Part shown: positions 1,853-33,150 of the stretch, in pieces
Layout of the letters: the number at the start of each line of letters is the position of its first letter
How positions within the stretch are numbered: the first letter of the stretch is position 1
Translations under genes and position numbers: made by a program
The notes under the pieces: model-generated
Databases searched by the model: none
Seen by the model: only the letters and a program-made list of their open reading frames with translations
Told to the model about the DNA's origin: nothing
Origin: a virus
Taxonomy: Duplodnaviria > Heunggongvirae > Uroviricota > Caudoviricetes
Direction: 5' to 3' (one strand)
IMG/VR virus record: IMGVR_UViG_2681813146_000002
DNA length: 47,946 nucleotides

Positions 1853-4645
1853 ATGGCCAGCAATAAGAACTTTAAGCTGGCTTTTGAAATTGGCGGCAAA
1901 GTTGCCGCCTCTCTCCCCAAAAGTTTTACTACAGCTAATCAGGCTGTTGCTAAATTAAATGCCGAGCTTGCTGGATTAACGAAAGAACATGGGGAAATTC
2001 AAAAGCTACAATCTGTAAAAGTAAAGGTTGGACAGACTGCCCTCGAATATCATAAAGCTGCCGCTCGCGTTGAAGAGTTACAGAAGCAAATAAAAAACAC
2101 GGCTAATCCAACCAGAGCGATGCTTCGTGACTTTGAGAAGGCAAAAACACATTCCTCGAATTTACGAGCATCACTACGTTCTCAGCGTGAAGAACTGGCC
2201 GCTTTAAAGTCTGCCTATCAGGGAGCTGATACATCTGCCAGAGCTTTGGCCTCAAGAGAGAAAGAGCTTAAAGCCAGCATTGATCGTAATCGTGAGGCTC
2301 AGGCCCGTAGCGTTGAGCAGGTTAACCGCTACAGAACGGCTTTGGCTTTAGCCAGAGCAAATGTTCAGCAAGTGAAAAAACAGCAGGAGGAACTTAACCG
2401 GGCATTAGAAAAACAACGTATTGATAAAATTAACAGCTATAAAAATGCGTTGGCTGAAGCACGGAAAAATGTTCTTGCAGTAAAACGTGCTCAGGAGGAG
2501 TTAAACCGCGCGTTGGAAAGGCAGCGTGAATTGAAGCGAGAGCATCTTGGTGAGGCAAAGAGTCAACTTGTAAGGTCAGGATTACAAACTGGTGCTGTAG
2601 CTGCTGGTGCATTTGCTGCTGCTAACAATGCAGCAAATTTCAATCGTGAAAACAAAATGATTGGTCTTACGGCAGATATGAAGCCGGAGGAAGTTCAGGC
2701 AATGGGGCAAGCGATGCTTGTTACCGGGGCGGCTACCAACCAGTTTGCATCTGATATTCAGGCCGCTCAGGGGTTTTTGGTTGCTGCGGGGCAGGATTAT
2801 AAAGAGGCTCAGGCGAATCTGCTGACTATTGGGCGAACGGCTACAGCTACTGGCTCTGATATCCTCGATGTCTCGAAAGCATCATTTACATTAAGTGACT
2901 CATTGAAGATTGATCCATCCCAAATGAAGTCTGCAATGGGGATTCTTGTTCAGGCAGGGAAAGAGGGGAACTTTGAATTTAAAGATATGGCCAAAAATCT
3001 TCCTGTGCTTGGTGCTCAGTTCCAGGCATTAAAAATGGGAGGTAAAGAAGCCGCCGCGACGATGGGGGCAGCTCTGCAGATTGCTCGCAAGGGTTCCGCA
3101 ACTTCGGATGAAGCTGCTAATAATATGAACAACTTTTTGGCGAAAATACTTTCCCCTGAAACCCTGAAAAAAGCAAAGAAGAATTTCGGTGTAGATTTAT
3201 ATAAAATTGTCACAACAGCGCAGAAAAAAGGGCAGAATCCTTTCGAAGCTGCAATGCAGTCTGTCATGAAAATGACTAAGAACGGAGATCAGAAGTTACT
3301 TGGTGAACTATTTGGCGATATGCAGGTTCAGAACTTTGTTCGTCCGATGATTCAAAACTGGAAGGAATACCAGAGAATCAAAGCAACATCTCTTGGTGCT
3401 GGAAGTGCTGTTATTGACCGCGATTTTGCCAATATAATGAAAGATAATGCGGAGCGATTGAAACAATTACGTATTCAGGCTAGCAATGCATCATTAAGTT
3501 TTGGTCAGGCCTTGCAACCTGCTTTAAATGCCGCGCTTAGTGTTTTGGTTCCACTGATTACAAAAATTAGTGAATTTGTAGCTAATAACCCCAATTTTGT
3601 TTCTCAGATTGTGATGACGGCAGGCGCGTTTCTAACCATGAAAAGTGTGGTTATAGCGTGTAGGGTAGCTATGCTGGCTTTATCTGTAGCGACAAAGCTA
3701 ACACCCTTCGGATGGATTCAGATGGCCATATCAGCCATTGTGGCGTTGGGTATATTGTTGTATCAGAACTGGGATAAAATAAAAGAATGTGCATCAAAAG
3801 TTTGGCCTGCTATTAAGGAGTACACAGTTAAGTCTTTTGAGGCTATAAAAAACTTTATCTTAAACTTTGATCTCAATGGATGGATTATATCCATGTTTGG
3901 TAAAGCATGGGGTTATCTTTCCAATATAAACTGGAGTTCGGCAGGAGTAAAAATTTACAGTACATTAATTAGTGCTTTTAAATGGATGTCTCCGCTTCCA
4001 TTATTAATTAAAGCGTTTAAATATATAACAAATTATCTTTCAGGCGTTAACTGGAGCGAAACAGGAAAGAAAATCATAGATACACTGGTATCTGTTTTTA
4101 TGCGTTTTTCACCTGTTGGACTCTTTATAAGAGCATTTCAATCTGTAACGACTTATTTATCTGGAATAAACTGGAGTGAGTCAGGTGCGAAAATAATTGA
4201 GACGTTAATCACAGGGATAAAATCAAAAGCAAATGCTTTGATTAATGAAGTGAAAGGTGTTTTTTCTTCTGTTCGTGAGTATTTGCCGTTTTCTGATGCG
4301 AAAAAAGGTCCATTCTCACAGCTAACAAAGTCAGGTGGTGCAATAATGACTACTCTGGCATCTGGTGTTAGCAGAAATAACAGCTTACAGAATGCAATCG
4401 CAACCAAGTTCGGGCAATCAAATTTATCACCTCGCGGGATCTCTGCTGCCGGGAGTTCTGGACCTCGCCAGAACGTTAACGCAGTGACTGGTGGGATAAC
4501 CTATTCACCTGTAATCAATCTTCCGGCTGGTTCACCAAAGGAAACTGAGGCGGCAGCTAAAAGAGCATTAGATGCGGGATATTCTGATTTTGAGAAGAAA
4601 TTGAGTGCTCATATGTTCCAACAACGGAGATTAAGTTTTGGATGA
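1853..4645 (+). CDS. Tail tape measure protein
   Basis: 930 aa with a coiled-coil-rich N-terminus and hydrophobic repeated C-terminal segments. Follows the frameshifted chaperone. Confidence 0.8.
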   Translation: MASNKNFKLAFEIGGKVAASLPKSFTTANQAVAKLNAELAGLTKEHGEIQKLQSVKVKVGQTALEYHKAAARVEELQKQIKNTANPTRAMLRDFEKAKTHSSNLRASLRSQREELAALKSAYQGADTSARALASREKELKASIDRNREAQARSVEQVNRYRTALALARANVQQVKKQQEELNRALEKQRIDKINSYKNALAEARKNVLAVKRAQEELNRALERQRELKREHLGEAKSQLVRSGLQTGAVAAGAFAAANNAANFNRENKMIGLTADMKPEEVQAMGQAMLVTGAATNQFASDIQAAQGFLVAAGQDYKEAQANLLTIGRTATATGSDILDVSKASFTLSDSLKIDPSQMKSAMGILVQAGKEGNFEFKDMAKNLPVLGAQFQALKMGGKEAAATMGAALQIARKGSATSDEAANNMNNFLAKILSPETLKKAKKNFGVDLYKIVTTAQKKGQNPFEAAMQSVMKMTKNGDQKLLGELFGDMQVQNFVRPMIQNWKEYQRIKATSLGAGSAVIDRDFANIMKDNAERLKQLRIQASNASLSFGQALQPALNAALSVLVPLITKISEFVANNPNFVSQIVMTAGAFLTMKSVVIACRVAMLALSVATKLTPFGWIQMAISAIVALGILLYQNWDKIKECASKVWPAIKEYTVKSFEAIKNFILNFDLNGWIISMFGKAWGYLSNINWSSAGVKIYSTLISAFKWMSPLPLLIKAFKYITNYLSGVNWSETGKKIIDTLVSVFMRFSPVGLFIRAFQSVTTYLSGINWSESGAKIIETLITGIKSKANALINEVKGVFSSVREYLPFSDAKKGPFSQLTKSGGAIMTTLASGVSRNNSLQNAIATKFGQSNLSPRGISAAGSSGPRQNVNAVTGGITYSPVINLPAGSPKETEAAAKRALDAGYSDFEKKLSAHMFQQRRLSFG

Positions 4646-14730: not shown

Positions 14731-14938
14731 ACGGCCGGGCTTTGCAGGAGGAAGGGGCGAGCCTTATCAATAAACGTCGATAAATACGCACACAGTAGCC
14801 ATCAGAACGCGATAAAACGTAAGAAACATCATTTCCTATTAGACATAGAAAACTTGTCTTATACGCAATGTAGTAAATTTCTATTGCCACATAGGAAAAG
14901 ATTTCCTACCATCGTAGATATAATAAATGGAGATGGTT

Positions 14939-15226
14939 ATGGATAAAGATACTGTTTTAAAAATGTTGAATCCGGCTTGTTTAAAAAAAGCGGATGAATG
15001 GGAATCTCCTACATGTGGAGAAGTTCGGGCAGTCATTGGCCTGACCGGAATGAGTGGCTCGCAGTTGGCCAAAAAACTAGGCTTAAAAGATAGCCGCAAT
15101 GTTCGCAACTGGCAGATGTTAAAGGAGTCCACATCCAGATCCAGCATTCCGTATGCAGCCTGGGCGCTGCTGTGTTACTTCGCTGGGTTAGGGTTAATCT
15201 TCATTGATAACAAAACAGATGTTTGA
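14939..15226 (+). CDS. Putative DNA-binding protein with a C-terminal hydrophobic segment
   Basis: HTH-like segment MSGSQLAKKLGL and C-terminal AAWALLCYFAGLGLIFI. Start taken after GGAG; ATG 14927 is an alternative. Confidence 0.35.
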   Translation: MDKDTVLKMLNPACLKKADEWESPTCGEVRAVIGLTGMSGSQLAKKLGLKDSRNVRNWQMLKESTSRSSIPYAAWALLCYFAGLGLIFIDNKTDV

Positions 15227-15249
15227 AACATGCAAATATGAGGTTTGTT

Positions 15250-15513
15250 ATGGAACTTGTACGCAAAACACGCAAAGAGTTCTTGGACCTGTATCGCATG
15301 GGAGCTTTCACTTGTGTTGTGGCTACCCAGGACGAAGTGACAAAAAGCTGGCGGCTTTTTGCTCTCAATAAAAAAGGGATTGCCGTTTTTATTGAAAAAG
15401 CCCGTGGTGGTATCCGCGAATGGGCGGGATTGAATTATGTGGCTGATTTTTGCGCAGCTATGGGGATTCGTCGCTGGGAAGTCCATATGCCAGGAGTAAA
15501 GTCACAAAAATAG
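15250..15513 (+). CDS. Hypothetical protein
   Basis: ORF downstream of the preceding gene. Start chosen at MELVRK after a GAGG-like ribosome-binding site. Confidence 0.35.
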   Translation: MELVRKTRKEFLDLYRMGAFTCVVATQDEVTKSWRLFALNKKGIAVFIEKARGGIREWAGLNYVADFCAAMGIRRWEVHMPGVKSQK

Positions 15514-15757
15514 GGCTTTCGCGTCGAAAATGAGGCGAAACTGAAAACGAGATTTCATTAACAAATAAGCAACATAAAAAACGGTGGAAAACGCCCAGGA
15601 AAACATGATCTTTTGAGCGGATTTTTTAGATCCGACAATGAACGGTGATCCGGTGGTGCCGATAACGTCCATTATGTTAAATAGCCCCGTTTTTCTTGAA
15701 ATTATAACCTACGGGTTATATAGTCAGTGGTATAAACTACAGGTTATAGGATTGAGC

Positions 15758-16105
15758 ATGTGGACGGTACTTTTTAGCCAGCGATTTGACGACTGGCTAA
15801 ATGAGCAAGAAGACGCTCTTCAGGAAAAGGTTTTGGCTGATTTGAAAAATCTACAGGTTTACGGACCTGAGTTACCCAGGCCATATGCCGATACCGTAAA
15901 AGGTTCTCGGTACAAAAATATGAAAGAGCTTCGCGTTCAGTTTTCTGGCCGTCCGATAAGAGCCTTTTATGCGTTCGATCCGATTCGCCGGGCTATCGTT
16001 CTTTGTGCAGGAGACAAAAGTAACGATAAGCGGTTTTATAAAAAACTGGTGCGTATAGCTGAGGATGAGTTTGCAGCACATCTGAACACACTGGAGAGCA
16101 AGTAA
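15758..16105 (+). CDS. higB: Toxin of a type II toxin-antitoxin pair (RelE/ParE superfamily, HigB / Gp49-like)
   Basis: Motifs RAFYAFDPIRRAIVLCAGDKSNDKRFY typical of Gp49/HigB-like toxins. Start ATG 15758 after AGGA. Followed by an HTH partner with overlapping stop/start. Confidence 0.6.
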   Translation: MWTVLFSQRFDDWLNEQEDALQEKVLADLKNLQVYGPELPRPYADTVKGSRYKNMKELRVQFSGRPIRAFYAFDPIRRAIVLCAGDKSNDKRFYKKLVRIAEDEFAAHLNTLESK

Positions 16106-16404
16106 TGAGAACATTAGATGAGGTGATTGCCAGCCGTTCACCTGAAAGCCAGGCGCGAATTAAAGAAATGGCAGATGAGATGATTCTTGAGGTCGGCTTG
16201 CAGATGATGCGTGAAGAACTCCAGTTATCACAAAAACAGGTTGCTGAGGCGATGGGTATTAGTCAGCCAGCAGTAACAAAGCTGGAGCAGCGCGGAAATG
16301 ATTTAAAGCTGGCGACATTAAAGCGTTACGTTGAAGCTATGGGAGGCAAATTAAGCCTGGATGTTGAGCTTCCCACAGGAAAACGAATAGCGTTTAACAT
16401 CTGA
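16105..16404 (+). CDS. higA: Antitoxin, XRE-family HTH (HigA-like)
   Basis: 99 aa with HTH LSQKQVAEAMGISQPAVTKLE. Translationally coupled to the toxin gene. Confidence 0.6.
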   Translation: MRTLDEVIASRSPESQARIKEMADEMILEVGLQMMREELQLSQKQVAEAMGISQPAVTKLEQRGNDLKLATLKRYVEAMGGKLSLDVELPTGKRIAFNI

Positions 16405-16418
16405 TCAGAACGAATGAT

Positions 16419-16447
16419 AAGCCCCTGTTGCAAAGGGGCTTTTTTGT
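16419..16447 (+). terminator. Rho-independent terminator after the toxin-antitoxin pair
   Basis: GCCCCTGTTGCAAAGGGGC hairpin followed by a T-run. Confidence 0.6.
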
Positions 16448-16450
16448 GCT

Positions 16451-16568
16451 CATAGAATTATATAATTATAGATTTATATAAAAAAGCGCTTTACGGGTGG
16501 GAAAAAATTTCCTAAGGTTATACCCGAAACCGAGCGATACCCGCCCTGGTTAAACCGGAGATAACCCG
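16451..16568 (+). promoter_or_regulatory. Conserved promoter/operator/leader cassette, copy A
   Basis: AT-rich palindrome, then TTTACG-N17-TAAGGT, then leader CCGAAACCGAGCGATACCCGCCCTGGTTAAACCGGAGATAACCCG before the ATG. Near-identical to copies at 25843 and 33034. Confidence 0.55.
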
Positions 16569-16949
16569 ATGAGCATGATTAAAATCCGCAAAGACGCTTT
16601 CCTTAAAATTCAAACTATCCTGGCTGGTTCTGTTGGCGTGATTTGCCGTTCTTCTTCAAGCCGCATCGATGACGGCTACGATGATGAGTATCGTGTGTCC
16701 TCGTGCGACGAGGCTTTAACCTGGCTGAAGGAGAATCAGGAACGTGCCCAGGTATATCTGGAAACAGAGAACGGCAATCAGATGTTGCGTATTAGCGGTC
16801 GTTATGGATTTGAAACTACATTCATGGCCTATTTTAATCAGGCTTACTTTGACAAGGAGTTGGCCTGGTACACTGATCGCATGAGCAAAAGCGAGCCAGC
16901 CCCGATTACACCGCCGAACAATAAACCATTTTTATTCCTCGTTAAGTAA
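16569..16949 (+). CDS. Hypothetical protein, cassette-driven accessory gene
   Basis: 126-aa ORF immediately after cassette copy A. Confidence 0.45.
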   Translation: MSMIKIRKDAFLKIQTILAGSVGVICRSSSSRIDDGYDDEYRVSSCDEALTWLKENQERAQVYLETENGNQMLRISGRYGFETTFMAYFNQAYFDKELAWYTDRMSKSEPAPITPPNNKPFLFLVK

Positions 16950-17012
16950 ACACAATGCGCAAAGTGTCATTTTGACACTTTGCGAGTGTTAATATTGTGC
17001 GAGGAGGGTGCT

Positions 17013-17285
17013 ATGACGGGTTATGAATTGAAATTATGGCGTCGTGGGATGAACTGGACGCAGGAGCGAGCCGCCGAAGAATTTGGGATATCGTTGGCTA
17101 CATATAAGCGATATGAGAAGGGGGAGCCGCCGAGGGTCATTGAGATGGCCATTCGCGTTCTGTCGTTTGACGATATGGTTAAGGATCTTTCACACCTTGA
17201 TAAAGATGCGATTCTGTTAAGGCTGCAAACCCTTGTATGGGAAAAGGTTAAAGTGTCGTCAGAATTGGAACAAGGGATCAAATGA
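17013..17285 (+). CDS. XRE-family HTH protein
   Basis: HTH WTQERAAEEFGISLATYKRYE. Start ATG 17013 after GAGGAGG. Confidence 0.5.
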   Translation: MTGYELKLWRRGMNWTQERAAEEFGISLATYKRYEKGEPPRVIEMAIRVLSFDDMVKDLSHLDKDAILLRLQTLVWEKVKVSSELEQGIK

Positions 17286-21296: not shown

Positions 21297-21339
21297 GTGT
21301 ATCCCCTTTTATATAAATCTATAAAACTATAATTATATA

Positions 21340-21993: not shown

Positions 21994-22020
21994 TTGTCGA
22001 GACTCCATGTGTTTGGTTAT

Positions 22021-22118
22021 ATAATTCTATAAATCTATATTTATAGAACGAGGTAAGCATAACCAACTTTTTGGCGGATGAAAAGCGTTTTATATAATTA
22101 TATAAATCTATAATCATA
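22021..22118. repeat. AT-rich palindromic repeat units upstream of the ParA-like gene (candidate centromere/operator)
   Basis: Repeated TATAATTCTATAAATCTATATTTATAGA and TATATAATTATATAAATCTATAATCATATA units. A related unit lies at about 21303..21332 upstream of the ParG-like gene. Confidence 0.5.
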
Positions 22119-25842: not shown

Positions 25843-25960
25843 AATCTATAAATATATAATTATATATTTATATAAAAAGTGCTTTACAGGTGGGAAAAAA
25901 TTTCCTAAGGTTATACCCGAAACCGAGCGATACCCGCCCTGGTTAAACCGGAGAAATCTG
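25843..25960 (+). promoter_or_regulatory. Conserved promoter/operator/leader cassette, copy B
   Basis: Same AT-rich palindrome, TTTACA-N17-TAAGGT and leader as copy A, ending at the ATG of the next gene. Confidence 0.55.
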
Positions 25961-27028: not shown

Positions 27029-27105
27029 CAGTAAGCCTACGGCGGGATGTCTCCTGCCGTATATAGAATTATATATTTATATAAATGTATAAGGACGCCT
27101 CGACA

Positions 27106-31774: not shown

Positions 31775-31898
31775 TACCGCCTGTGATTGGGTAAAGCCCA
31801 TCTACCTGACTGATCACGACATCGATGTTATGGACCGCCAGACAAAGAAAGATATTCTGGCTCATAACATGGCATGGGAAATCAACTGCCGAAAGTAA
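31719..31898 (+). CDS. Outer-membrane lipoprotein spanin (Rz1-like)
   Basis: Lipobox LIASC in MTMLIASCGS. Overlaps the Rz-like gene out of frame. Confidence 0.5.
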   Translation: MTMLIASCGSRGSVPVVVDTACDWVKPIYLTDHDIDVMDRQTKKDILAHNMAWEINCRK

Positions 31899-32067
31899 TA
31901 TATATTTCTATAATTATATAAATATATAGTTACAACATTCTATGCGCTTTTCTCATGGGCGCACGCATCAACCATGTTTGTCTGATATGCCGCCGCGCCC
32001 AAAAATCCTGAATTTATTGGCTGGGATTTTCGTGCGCGGCGCCACACCAGACAAACAAATCAAATAT

Positions 32068-32450: not shown

Positions 32451-33038
32451 ATGGAGGCAATTGCATTGTTTAATCTGATTTATGCAGATCCCCCCTGGGA
32501 ATACAAAGACAAGTGTAAGGATGGGAATCGTGGCGCTGGTTTTAAGTATCCAACGATGAAAGCTGAGGATATTGCTCGTATTCCTGTCTGGCAGCTTGCT
32601 AATCCTGAATCGTGTTTGTTGGCCATGTGGTGGGTTCCGACTCAGCCAGAAGAAGCGTTGCTGGTGGTGAAAGCATGGGGATTCAGGCTGATGACCATGA
32701 AGGGCTTCACATGGAACAAATGTGGTAGCCGACAACCAGATAAGCTGGTGATGGGGATGGGGCATATGACTCGTGCAAACAGTGAAGATTGCTTGTTTGC
32801 GGTAAAAGGCAAACTGCCGACCCGCCTTGATGCGGGGATCATTCAGTCGTTTACATCGCCTCGTCTGGAGCATTCTCGGAAGCCTGATGTGGTTCGTGAC
32901 AAGCTGGTAAGGCTGTTAGGTGATGTTCCCCGTATTGAGCTGTTTGCTCGCGGTGATTTACCTGATGGCTGGCATGGCTGGGGCAACCAGTGCAATGGAG
33001 GTATCCAGTTGCATGATGCTCTCTGGCAAGTGGCATAG
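32451..33038 (+). CDS. MT-A70-family N6-adenine DNA methyltransferase
   Basis: DPPW catalytic motif in LIYADPPWEY. Size 195 aa. Confidence 0.65.
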   Translation: MEAIALFNLIYADPPWEYKDKCKDGNRGAGFKYPTMKAEDIARIPVWQLANPESCLLAMWWVPTQPEEALLVVKAWGFRLMTMKGFTWNKCGSRQPDKLVMGMGHMTRANSEDCLFAVKGKLPTRLDAGIIQSFTSPRLEHSRKPDVVRDKLVRLLGDVPRIELFARGDLPDGWHGWGNQCNGGIQLHDALWQVA

Positions 33039-33150
33039 AATTATATAATTATATATTTATATAAAAAGCGCTTTACAGGTGGGAAAAAATTTCCTATGGT
33101 TATACCCGAAACCGAGCGATACCCGCCCTGGTTAAACCGGAGATAACCCG
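33034..33150 (+). promoter_or_regulatory. Conserved promoter/operator/leader cassette, copy C
   Basis: Near-identical to copies A and B (TATGGT in place of TAAGGT). Begins at the methyltransferase stop codon. Confidence 0.55.

Follow-up and report, generated by a model that had tools for sequence, protein, structure and literature searches.

A probable Gp49(HigB-like)/XRE-HigA toxin-antitoxin operon with conserved promoter palindromes in an Escherichia coli phage-plasmid, and its near-identical copy on Yersinia pestis pPCP1

Introduction

Toxin-antitoxin pairs in which a Gp49-domain toxin is encoded ahead of an XRE-type antitoxin have been described from several mobile elements and from a chromosome, and are variously referred to as HigBA or Tad-Ata. 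The present analysis concerns a pair of this kind, encoded at positions 15758-16404 of IMG/VR virus record IMGVR_UViG_2681813146_000002, a 47,946-nucleotide stretch of Caudoviricetes DNA that is called the window throughout. The pair very probably constitutes a type II toxin-antitoxin operon of the Gp49(HigB-like)/XRE-HigA type, alias Tad-Ata, that is autonomous and regulates its own expression.

The closest tested homologue is HigBA of IncC (IncA/C2) plasmids, for which it has been demonstrated that induction of the toxin arrests growth, that the antitoxin rescues this arrest, that the toxin cleaves A-rich messenger RNA (mRNA) in a ribosome-dependent manner and is inactivated by the substitution G64V, and that the pair stabilizes an unstable vector (PMC8265657). 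The same authors proposed a weak SOS box (…GATTGCACCTATATTAAGTA) in the higBA promoter (PMC8265657). A second relevant system is HigBA3 of Mycobacterium tuberculosis (Rv3182/Rv3183), whose promoter contains AGATATAACCTAGAGGTTATACTG (TATAACC-TAGA-GGTTATA) around the -10 box and whose antitoxin, MtHigA3 (structures 6LTY and 6LTZ), has been crystallized in complex with operator DNA, its helix alpha-3 lying in the major groove (PMC7340258). On the Acinetobacter baumannii plasmid pAB120 the HigBA2 toxin acts as a ribonuclease (RNase), while HigA represses the promoter with HigB as co-repressor (PMC5906591). The Tad-Ata pairs of Paracoccus pAMI2, phage N15 and SXT behave alike, as Dziewit et al. 2007 are cited in PMC5906591, and a family table of Gp49-type pairs is available (PMC11980606).

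Organization of the operon

Both genes in the window are served by one promoter and one terminator, and the features on which the argument depends are as follows (both Shine-Dalgarno sites are read from the sequence).

15696-15724, plus strand: sigma-70-type promoter, with a -35 box TTGAAA at 15696-15701, a 17-nucleotide spacer and a -10 box TATAGT at 15719-15724
15703-15720, no strand assigned: predicted operator O1, a perfect palindrome TATAACC-TACG-GGTTATA, occupying the promoter spacer and reaching into the -10 box
15731-15748, no strand assigned: predicted operator O2, TATAAAC-TACA-GGTTATA, with one arm mismatch, spanning predicted positions +1 to +18
15748-15751, plus strand: toxin Shine-Dalgarno sequence AGGA, 6 nucleotides before the ATG, abutted by O2
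15758-16105, plus strand: toxin gene, 115 amino acids, Gp49/HigB-like, RelE/ParE (BECR-fold) superfamily
16093-16098, plus strand: antitoxin Shine-Dalgarno sequence GGAGAG, inside the 3' end of the toxin gene
16105-16404, plus strand: antitoxin gene, 99 amino acids, XRE/Cro-C1 helix-turn-helix, HigA-like
16419-16447, plus strand: intrinsic terminator, with an 8-bp GC-rich stem, a 7-nucleotide loop and a T-run

The promoter (TTGAAA-17-TATAGT) matches the consensus at 10 of 12 positions and was the sole promoter-like site found by a simple scan of 15400-16700, a scan that detected no additional internal promoter for the antitoxin gene; transcription is predicted to start at about 15730-15732. 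The last A of the toxin TAA stop (16103-16105) is also the first base of the antitoxin ATG (16105-16107), giving a TAATG overlap, and the GGAGAG of the antitoxin lies 8 nucleotides 5' of that ATG. This close coupling, together with the helix-turn-helix family match given below, bears out the suggestion of an earlier sequence-only reading of the locus that the toxin is followed by a coupled XRE partner, and the terminator which it had placed behind the pair is present as a stem at 16419-16441 with a T-run that reaches 16447. With this terminator directly after the antitoxin, no SecB-like chaperone is found as a third operon gene of the kind that defines toxin-antitoxin-chaperone (TAC) systems, and the next open reading frame (ORF), at 16569-16949, is preceded by an upstream region of its own and matches no Pfam family. 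The toxin-first layout is a property of the family, since 76 of 78 homologous loci have an antitoxin-sized ORF (mostly 99-105 amino acids) that starts -29 to +7 nucleotides from the toxin stop. These loci, which are used in all family comparisons of the promoter below, are those with a full-length toxin among 80 fetched from species-representative genomes, and for each of them the 100 nucleotides upstream of the toxin start were considered.

A longer ORF of 155 amino acids (15638-16105) does exist in the toxin frame, with an in-frame ATG at 15758. As a toxin gene it was rejected, because the promoter and both operators would fall inside it and because homologues are without the extension: about 1,200 of them are virtually all 115-120 amino acids long and start with MW(T/K)V. 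Position 15758 is thus taken as the start, as had been proposed from the sequence, on the grounds that the AGGA at 15748-15751, the position of the promoter inside the longer ORF and a homologue length of about 116 amino acids all agree. At least one public gene call (155 amino acids, protein P0001) takes the upstream ATG at 15638, and this represents an over-extended start (window 15638-15757).

Comparison with described systems

A tblastn match in a Salmonella genomic island (AB571791.1, locus L083) comprises toxin and antitoxin genes of 351 and 303 bp, respectively, and contains GATTGCACCTATATTAAGTA upstream, the very string quoted for IncC higBA; it is therefore identified as the IncC higBA (tad-ata) pair, since gene lengths and upstream string both fit PMC8265657. 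Over their full lengths the IncC proteins (116 and 100 amino acids, compared with 115 and 99 here) are 54% (toxin) and 46% (antitoxin) identical to those of the window, and both operons are toxin-first. The two toxins share G64 and the KELRVQ, R68, K87, K91 and FY motifs, and in the IncC promoter, as in that of the window, a TTGA -35 box is followed by two TATA-rich 7-4-7 palindromes (L083 2950-2967 and 2966-2983). The two systems differ in their half-sites (TATAGGT/TATAGAT in IncC, TATAACC in the window), in the arrangement of the palindromes, which overlap in IncC with starts 16 nucleotides apart whereas they start 28 nucleotides apart here, and in gene spacing, the IncC genes being separated by 4 nucleotides while those of the window overlap by 1. 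They also differ in carrier, which is a low-copy conjugative plasmid in the case of IncC and a phage-plasmid here. Within L083 2945-2983 (AB571791.1) the proposed IncC SOS box overlaps one 7-4-7 palindrome, TATAGGATTGCACCTATA, and a second, TATAGGTTTGAATCTATA, lies just upstream; judging from these sequences, this region may more simply be read as a set of HigA operators.

M. tuberculosis HigBA3 likewise has a Gp49-type toxin and a toxin-first order. Its palindrome, TATAACC-TAGA-GGTTATA, equals O1 in half-sites and spacer length, and the recognition helices of HigA3 and of the window antitoxin both read (S/T)-K-L-E. On the other hand, this system is only about 30% identical to the window pair, is chromosomal in an actinobacterial host, has a single palindrome reported at the -10 box as opposed to two sites, and has a toxin, HigB3, that is non-toxic in Mycobacterium smegmatis (PMC9098466). 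HigBA2 of A. baumannii pAB120 is plasmid-borne and also has a Gp49-domain toxin followed by an XRE antitoxin (PMC5906591), but an extra internal higA promoter has been reported there, whereas none was detected in the window by the simple scan. Rts1 HigBA of Proteus vulgaris resembles the window pair in being toxin-first, in having a helix-turn-helix antitoxin and in two inverted-repeat operators over the promoter, and its HigB is a ribosome-dependent mRNase of RelE fold (PMC12266136). It nevertheless belongs to a different Pfam family, has no detectable sequence similarity to the window toxin, and is without the long C-terminal helix of Gp49-type toxins (PMC9098466). The pAB120 HigBA2 pair and the Tad-Ata pairs of pAMI2, N15 and SXT are more distant from the window pair in sequence, and phage N15 was not among the tblastn matches in phage records at E ≤ 1e-5. 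Like the present element, N15 is a phage-plasmid, and the Pfam family Gp49 takes its name from the gp49 of N15.

Toxin and antitoxin

The toxin matches Pfam Gp49 (PF05973) with a score of 81 bits, the cut-off being 23.9 (E 6.7e-23; profile positions 1-89 of 90), as well as phrog_3445 'toxin' (E 2e-33), and a profile of its close relatives recovers 3,310 representatives of 50%-identity clusters at E ≤ 0.001, indicative of a large and widespread family. Gp49 was the only family matched at E ≤ 0.01, the canonical HigB families (Pfam HigB PF09907 and HigB-like PF05015) giving no match, and 'HigB' applies to this toxin only in a loose naming sense, its family being Gp49/Tad. The 'HigB2' label found in Yersinia phage records reflects automatic transfer.

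The confident AlphaFold2 model of the toxin (predicted local distance difference test score 89.9) has a RelE/HigB fold with strands at residues 3-6, 44-46, 55-62, 65-73 and 78-86 and helices at 8-15, 19-38 and 91-114. The predicted arrangement, with helices at the N-terminus, an antiparallel sheet of four strands and a long helix at the C-terminus, is that of a RelE-type toxin, and a long C-terminal helix is typical of Gp49-like toxins (PMC9098466). Foldseek related the model to Thermus thermophilus RelE (2khe, E 8e-5), Streptococcus pneumoniae HigB (6af4, template modelling score 0.74) and Vibrio cholerae HigB2 (5jaa).

In a diverse family alignment K56, E57, L58, R59, R68, K87 and Y94 are nearly invariant, and G64 and K91 are invariant among closer relatives. 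It has been shown that alanine mutants of E66, R68, R77, K95 and K99 of M. tuberculosis HigB-TAC lose toxicity (PMC9098466), and the spacing in the window toxin (E57-x-R59, 8 residues, R68, 18 residues, K87-xxx-K91) parallels HigB-TAC E66/R68, R77 and K95/K99. The candidate catalytic residues are those matched to HigB-TAC by spacing and conservation rather than by a computed alignment. A direct mapping onto K52/K54/R61/R81/Y87 of RelE was dropped after an hhalign comparison of the toxin family with E. coli RelE gave no match. By analogy with its characterized relatives, the toxin would be a RelE-fold endoribonuclease, most likely cutting mRNA on the ribosome. In one Y. pestis variant of the toxin (P0010), FESDSSGYRSCAGDKS replaces the family sequence FDPIRRAIVLCAGDKS at aligned toxin residues 74-83; this resembles the outcome of a compensated frameshift, with a core beta-strand scrambled, and the toxin may be inactivated in that strain.

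The antitoxin is an XRE helix-turn-helix protein (Pfam HTH_3, E 3.9e-10), and the solved structures that it matches best are those of HigA3 (6lty, E 4.6e-5) and HigA2 (7ewc) from M. tuberculosis and of HigA from S. pneumoniae (6af3). Matches to solved relatives cover residues 18-89, that to HigA3 spanning 20-88, and the recognition helix reads SQPAVT-K59-LEQ. The protein is expected both to neutralize the toxin and to bind DNA. The Gp49 match, the RelE/HigB fold model, the XRE partner close to HigA and the coupled toxin-first genes together uphold the proposal from the sequence-only reading that the locus encodes a toxin-antitoxin pair. Its 'HigB/HigA-like' label fits the antitoxin with its HigA relatives, and the toxin only loosely, as judged by the canonical HigB Pfam families.

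Promoter palindromes as antitoxin operators

The palindromes that had been noticed upstream of the toxin, and put forward as a possible antitoxin operator, resolve into two 18-nucleotide units of 7-4-7 architecture whose starts lie 28 nucleotides apart: O1, TATAACCTACGGGTTATA, is perfect, and O2, TATAAACTACAGGTTATA, has one arm mismatch. The version given earlier as GGTATAAACTACAGGTTATAGG takes in, on each side, two further bases that are unpaired. At ≤2 mismatches the motif occurs only at these two sites in the 47.9-kb window, against 0.17 occurrences expected. A third, partial operator core in the toxin gene (15848-15859) was discarded as chance, as 6 of its 18 positions depart from O2 and the same ≤2-mismatch search did not find it.

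With a 7-4-7 palindrome of ≤1 mismatch as the criterion, 69 of the 78 homologous loci have at least one such unit upstream of the toxin and 35 have at least two, compared with a background of 0.21 per 100 nucleotides in control DNA from related loci. Positions cluster about 55 and 28 nucleotides before the start codon, matching O1 and O2 of the window, and in seven aligned upstream regions the order is invariant: the TTGA of the -35 box, which is conserved across the alignment, O1 over the -10 box, O2, the Shine-Dalgarno sequence and the start codon.

Half-sites vary by clade, and both arms change together. The window and pPCP1 have TATAACC, most Enterobacterales TATAAGC, Buttiauxella and Dryocola TATAAAC, Acinetobacter TATAGAT, Rosenbergiella and Kluyvera TATAGC(C/T), and Kosakonia CATAGC. 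Position 59 of the antitoxin follows these changes, with K where the half-site is TATAACC, Q where it is TATAAGC and A where it is TATAAAC or TATAGAT, a correlation that is confounded by phylogeny. The pairing recurs in a very distant lineage, as K69 of M. tuberculosis HigA3 aligns with K59 and the higBA3 palindrome has half-sites identical to those of O1 (TATAACC-N4-GGTTATA). The layout in 69 of 78 loci, the symmetric half-site changes and the half-sites common to the M. tuberculosis promoter thus sustain the operator idea, and comparative sequence evidence strongly supports the view that these palindromes are the family's conserved antitoxin-binding operators, overlapping their own promoter in an autoregulatory arrangement.

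Proposed mechanism and points against it

Under the proposed mechanism, the promoter at 15696-15724 would drive a single bicistronic mRNA from which the toxin and then, by translational coupling, the antitoxin are made, and the antitoxin would sequester the toxin by direct binding. An antitoxin dimer would also bind, through its helix-turn-helix, to O1 between the -35 and -10 boxes and to O2 at the transcription start, and occupancy of these sites would occlude RNA polymerase and shut off the operon's own promoter. Upon loss of the element or a block in synthesis, the more labile antitoxin would decay, and free toxin would arrest or kill the cell.

Several points weigh against this interpretation. 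M. tuberculosis HigB2 and HigB3 are both non-toxic in M. smegmatis (PMC9098466), and it is to their antitoxins that the one described here stands closest among solved structures; family membership is no guarantee of toxicity. Searches of solved structures by sequence, with the single toxin, a close-family profile and a diverse profile, gave no significant match, so that the predicted fold is the sole link to solved toxins. In gel shifts with MtHigA3, only a 20-mer with one TATAACC half-site was shifted, according to the figure legend (PMC7340258), which makes the link from experiment to the full palindrome indirect. The distance between O1 and O2 ranges from 16 to 29 nucleotides among homologues, and cooperativity between the two sites is for this reason uncertain. 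Finally, the case for this exact pair is drawn from homologues and sequence, and a role in maintenance, discussed below, from context and homologues.

Genomic setting and distribution

The window is >98% identical to circular E. coli plasmids of about 48 kb and, at the same level, to three 49-kb myoviruses isolated on Y. pestis EV76-CN. In the RefSeq annotation of the best match, head genes and contractile-tail genes (sheath, tube, baseplate) stand in one record with RepA, ParA, a CI-like XRE repressor and Rha; because structural and plasmid or lysogeny functions are joined in this way, the element is regarded as a phage-plasmid, as the sequence-only reading had supposed. The operon lies about 1.5 kb downstream of repA, with ParA and the CI-like repressor in the same region, a part of the 48-kb E. 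coli phage-plasmid that serves plasmid maintenance and lysogeny. It was found in 91 of 5,426 complete E. coli genomes (coverage ≥80%). Among public plasmid records, this repA occurs in 62 and the operon in 62 non-Yersinia records, and the operon therefore behaves as a backbone gene of the family and not as sporadic cargo.

The pair is already annotated as toxin-antitoxin in public records, where NCBI PGAP labels the toxin 'type II toxin-antitoxin system RelE/ParE family toxin' and the antitoxin 'helix-turn-helix domain-containing protein'. Literature searches under the Yersinia phage names and under the RefSeq protein and plasmid accessions returned nothing relevant. Small flanking ORFs in 14927-15513 and 16569-17285 (99, 96 and 126 amino acids) have no Pfam match, while a 101-amino-acid ORF at 16980-17285 encodes a further XRE helix-turn-helix protein.

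A near-identical copy of the cassette is present on the 9.6-kb virulence plasmid pPCP1 of Y. pestis CO92 (L084, NC_003132.1 7790-8430), where it adjoins pla and is 95.2% identical in nucleotides to window 15691-16394; it was found in 52 Yersinia plasmid records. The homology ends about 10 nucleotides before the antitoxin stop codon, indicating that the cassette moved as a unit, and the pPCP1 version of O2 is degenerate (GGTAAGCTACAGGTTATA). The cassette was also met in a Firmicute assembly, on a 9,631-bp scaffold designated 'Amphibacillus jilinensis Y1 Scaffold15' (L003, NZ_JH976447.1), which is almost exactly of pPCP1 size and whose upstream region is identical to that of a Y. pestis locus (L004). 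This looks like contamination of the Amphibacillus assembly by a pPCP1-like plasmid.

Biological role

Post-segregational stabilization of the low-copy plasmid-prophage appears the most likely role, an assignment that is made with modest confidence. It is favoured because the cassette stands beside repA and par, because it is present across the whole phage-plasmid family, and because the IncC homologue stabilizes plasmids.

The same toxin-antitoxin mechanism might instead have been selected for anti-phage defence, or superinfection exclusion, by abortive infection: a phage that halted transcription in the host or broke down the antitoxin would release the RNase, abort its own infection and so protect clonal carriers. 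We consider this unlikely, yet worth keeping in mind. Involvement in defence is increasingly recognized for RelE/ParE-superfamily toxins, and Gp49 domains are present in some defence proteins (PMC11980606). A role in defence has also been reported for toxin-antitoxin-chaperone systems of the Gp49 type (bioRxiv 10.1101/2024.02.24.581848), defence cargo is frequent on temperate elements, and the toxin matches the C-terminal domain of the PADLOC model NsnC (E 5e-7). PADLOC, however, matched no full system, its matches being the partial NsnC C-terminus and generic helix-turn-helix models; moreover, the cassette adjoins replication and partition genes rather than a defence hotspot and is found in essentially all family members, and plasmid stabilization has been demonstrated for IncC HigBA, the homologue nearest to it among those tested (PMC8265657). 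The two roles are not mutually exclusive.

A doubtful proposal, to which only a small probability is attached, is that the cassette acts beyond addiction, either in a cross-talk network between the phage-plasmid family and pPCP1 or as an abortive-infection defence against unrelated phages. If such cross-talk existed, the resident antitoxin of one replicon could neutralize the toxin and repress the promoter of the other, and this would cancel post-segregational killing (anti-addiction) or alter establishment of the phage-plasmid.

More doubtful still is the notion that the pair is attenuated or domesticated, with little or no toxicity, and serves mainly as a transcriptional regulator with its co-repressor or as an anti-addiction module that neutralizes the cassette, 95% identical to it, on other replicons, Y. 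pestis pPCP1 being an example. The non-toxic HigB2 and HigB3 of M. tuberculosis (PMC9098466) and the scrambled core strand of the Y. pestis variant P0010 are compatible with attenuation, and the near-identical cassette in the 52 Yersinia plasmid records, combined with the isolation of phages of this family on Y. pestis EV76-CN, implies that the two cassettes can meet in one cell. In contrast, the strict conservation of the candidate catalytic residues and of G64, both in the window toxin and in the family, points to purifying selection on activity; a live toxin would be expected to be tightly autorepressed and translationally coupled; and the IncC homologue is strongly toxic (PMC8265657).

The least probable reading, which is given hardly any weight, is that the palindromes are RNA hairpins of the 5' leader or sites for another repressor of the phage-plasmid. 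In its favour, O2 falls within the predicted transcript, a fold of -9.9 kcal/mol (z-score -2.05) was obtained for the leader (15729-15775), and other helix-turn-helix proteins are encoded on the element (16980-17285 and the CI-like repressor). Against it, O1 precedes the predicted transcription start and cannot function at the RNA level, the O2 arms do not form the stem of the minimum-energy leader fold, which is equalled by 10 of 200 shuffles, and the motif occurs nowhere else in the window. The palindromes also accompany the toxin-antitoxin genes in chromosomes and plasmids of many genera without the phage-plasmid, and they co-vary with the antitoxin recognition helix. An O2 hairpin was accordingly rejected, the leader fold being only marginally better than shuffles and the palindrome not its stem.

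The locus leaves the understanding of toxin-antitoxin systems unchanged and is a real but ordinary case of a well-known kind, Gp49/HigB-like plus XRE HigA (Tad-Ata). Only modestly new are the family-wide operator architecture with its co-variation in specificity and the near-identical copy on pPCP1. For annotation there is a gain, as the true toxin start is fixed and a promoter, two predicted operators and a terminator are defined, and a cassette of about 90 complete E. coli genomes and of Y. pestis pPCP1 is tied to experimentally validated homologues. In addition, residue 59 together with half-site bases 5-7 constitutes a candidate specificity determinant for HigA antitoxins of the Gp49 branch, TATAACC-N4-GGTTATA being common to E. 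coli phage-plasmids and M. tuberculosis higBA3.

A dispersed AT-rich repeat

Separate from the operators, the window contains a dispersed AT-rich repeat with the core ATAGAWTTATATAA, often in overlapping inverted copies, of which 31 matches at ≤2 mismatches were found against 1.1 expected. It clusters at about seven intergenic spots, one of them (16451-16500) directly 3' of the toxin-antitoxin terminator and the others at about 21309-21322, 22017-22111, 25852-25875, 27063-27090, 31898-31927 and 33035-33064, and single sites are found at 3191, 14701 and 47623. The copy at 16451-16500, which is unrelated to the operon, gave rise to a second BLAST place per record that was rejected as a further operon copy. 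The repeat may represent the operator/promoter set of a master repressor of the phage-plasmid, comparable to the C1 operators that are dispersed in phage P1.

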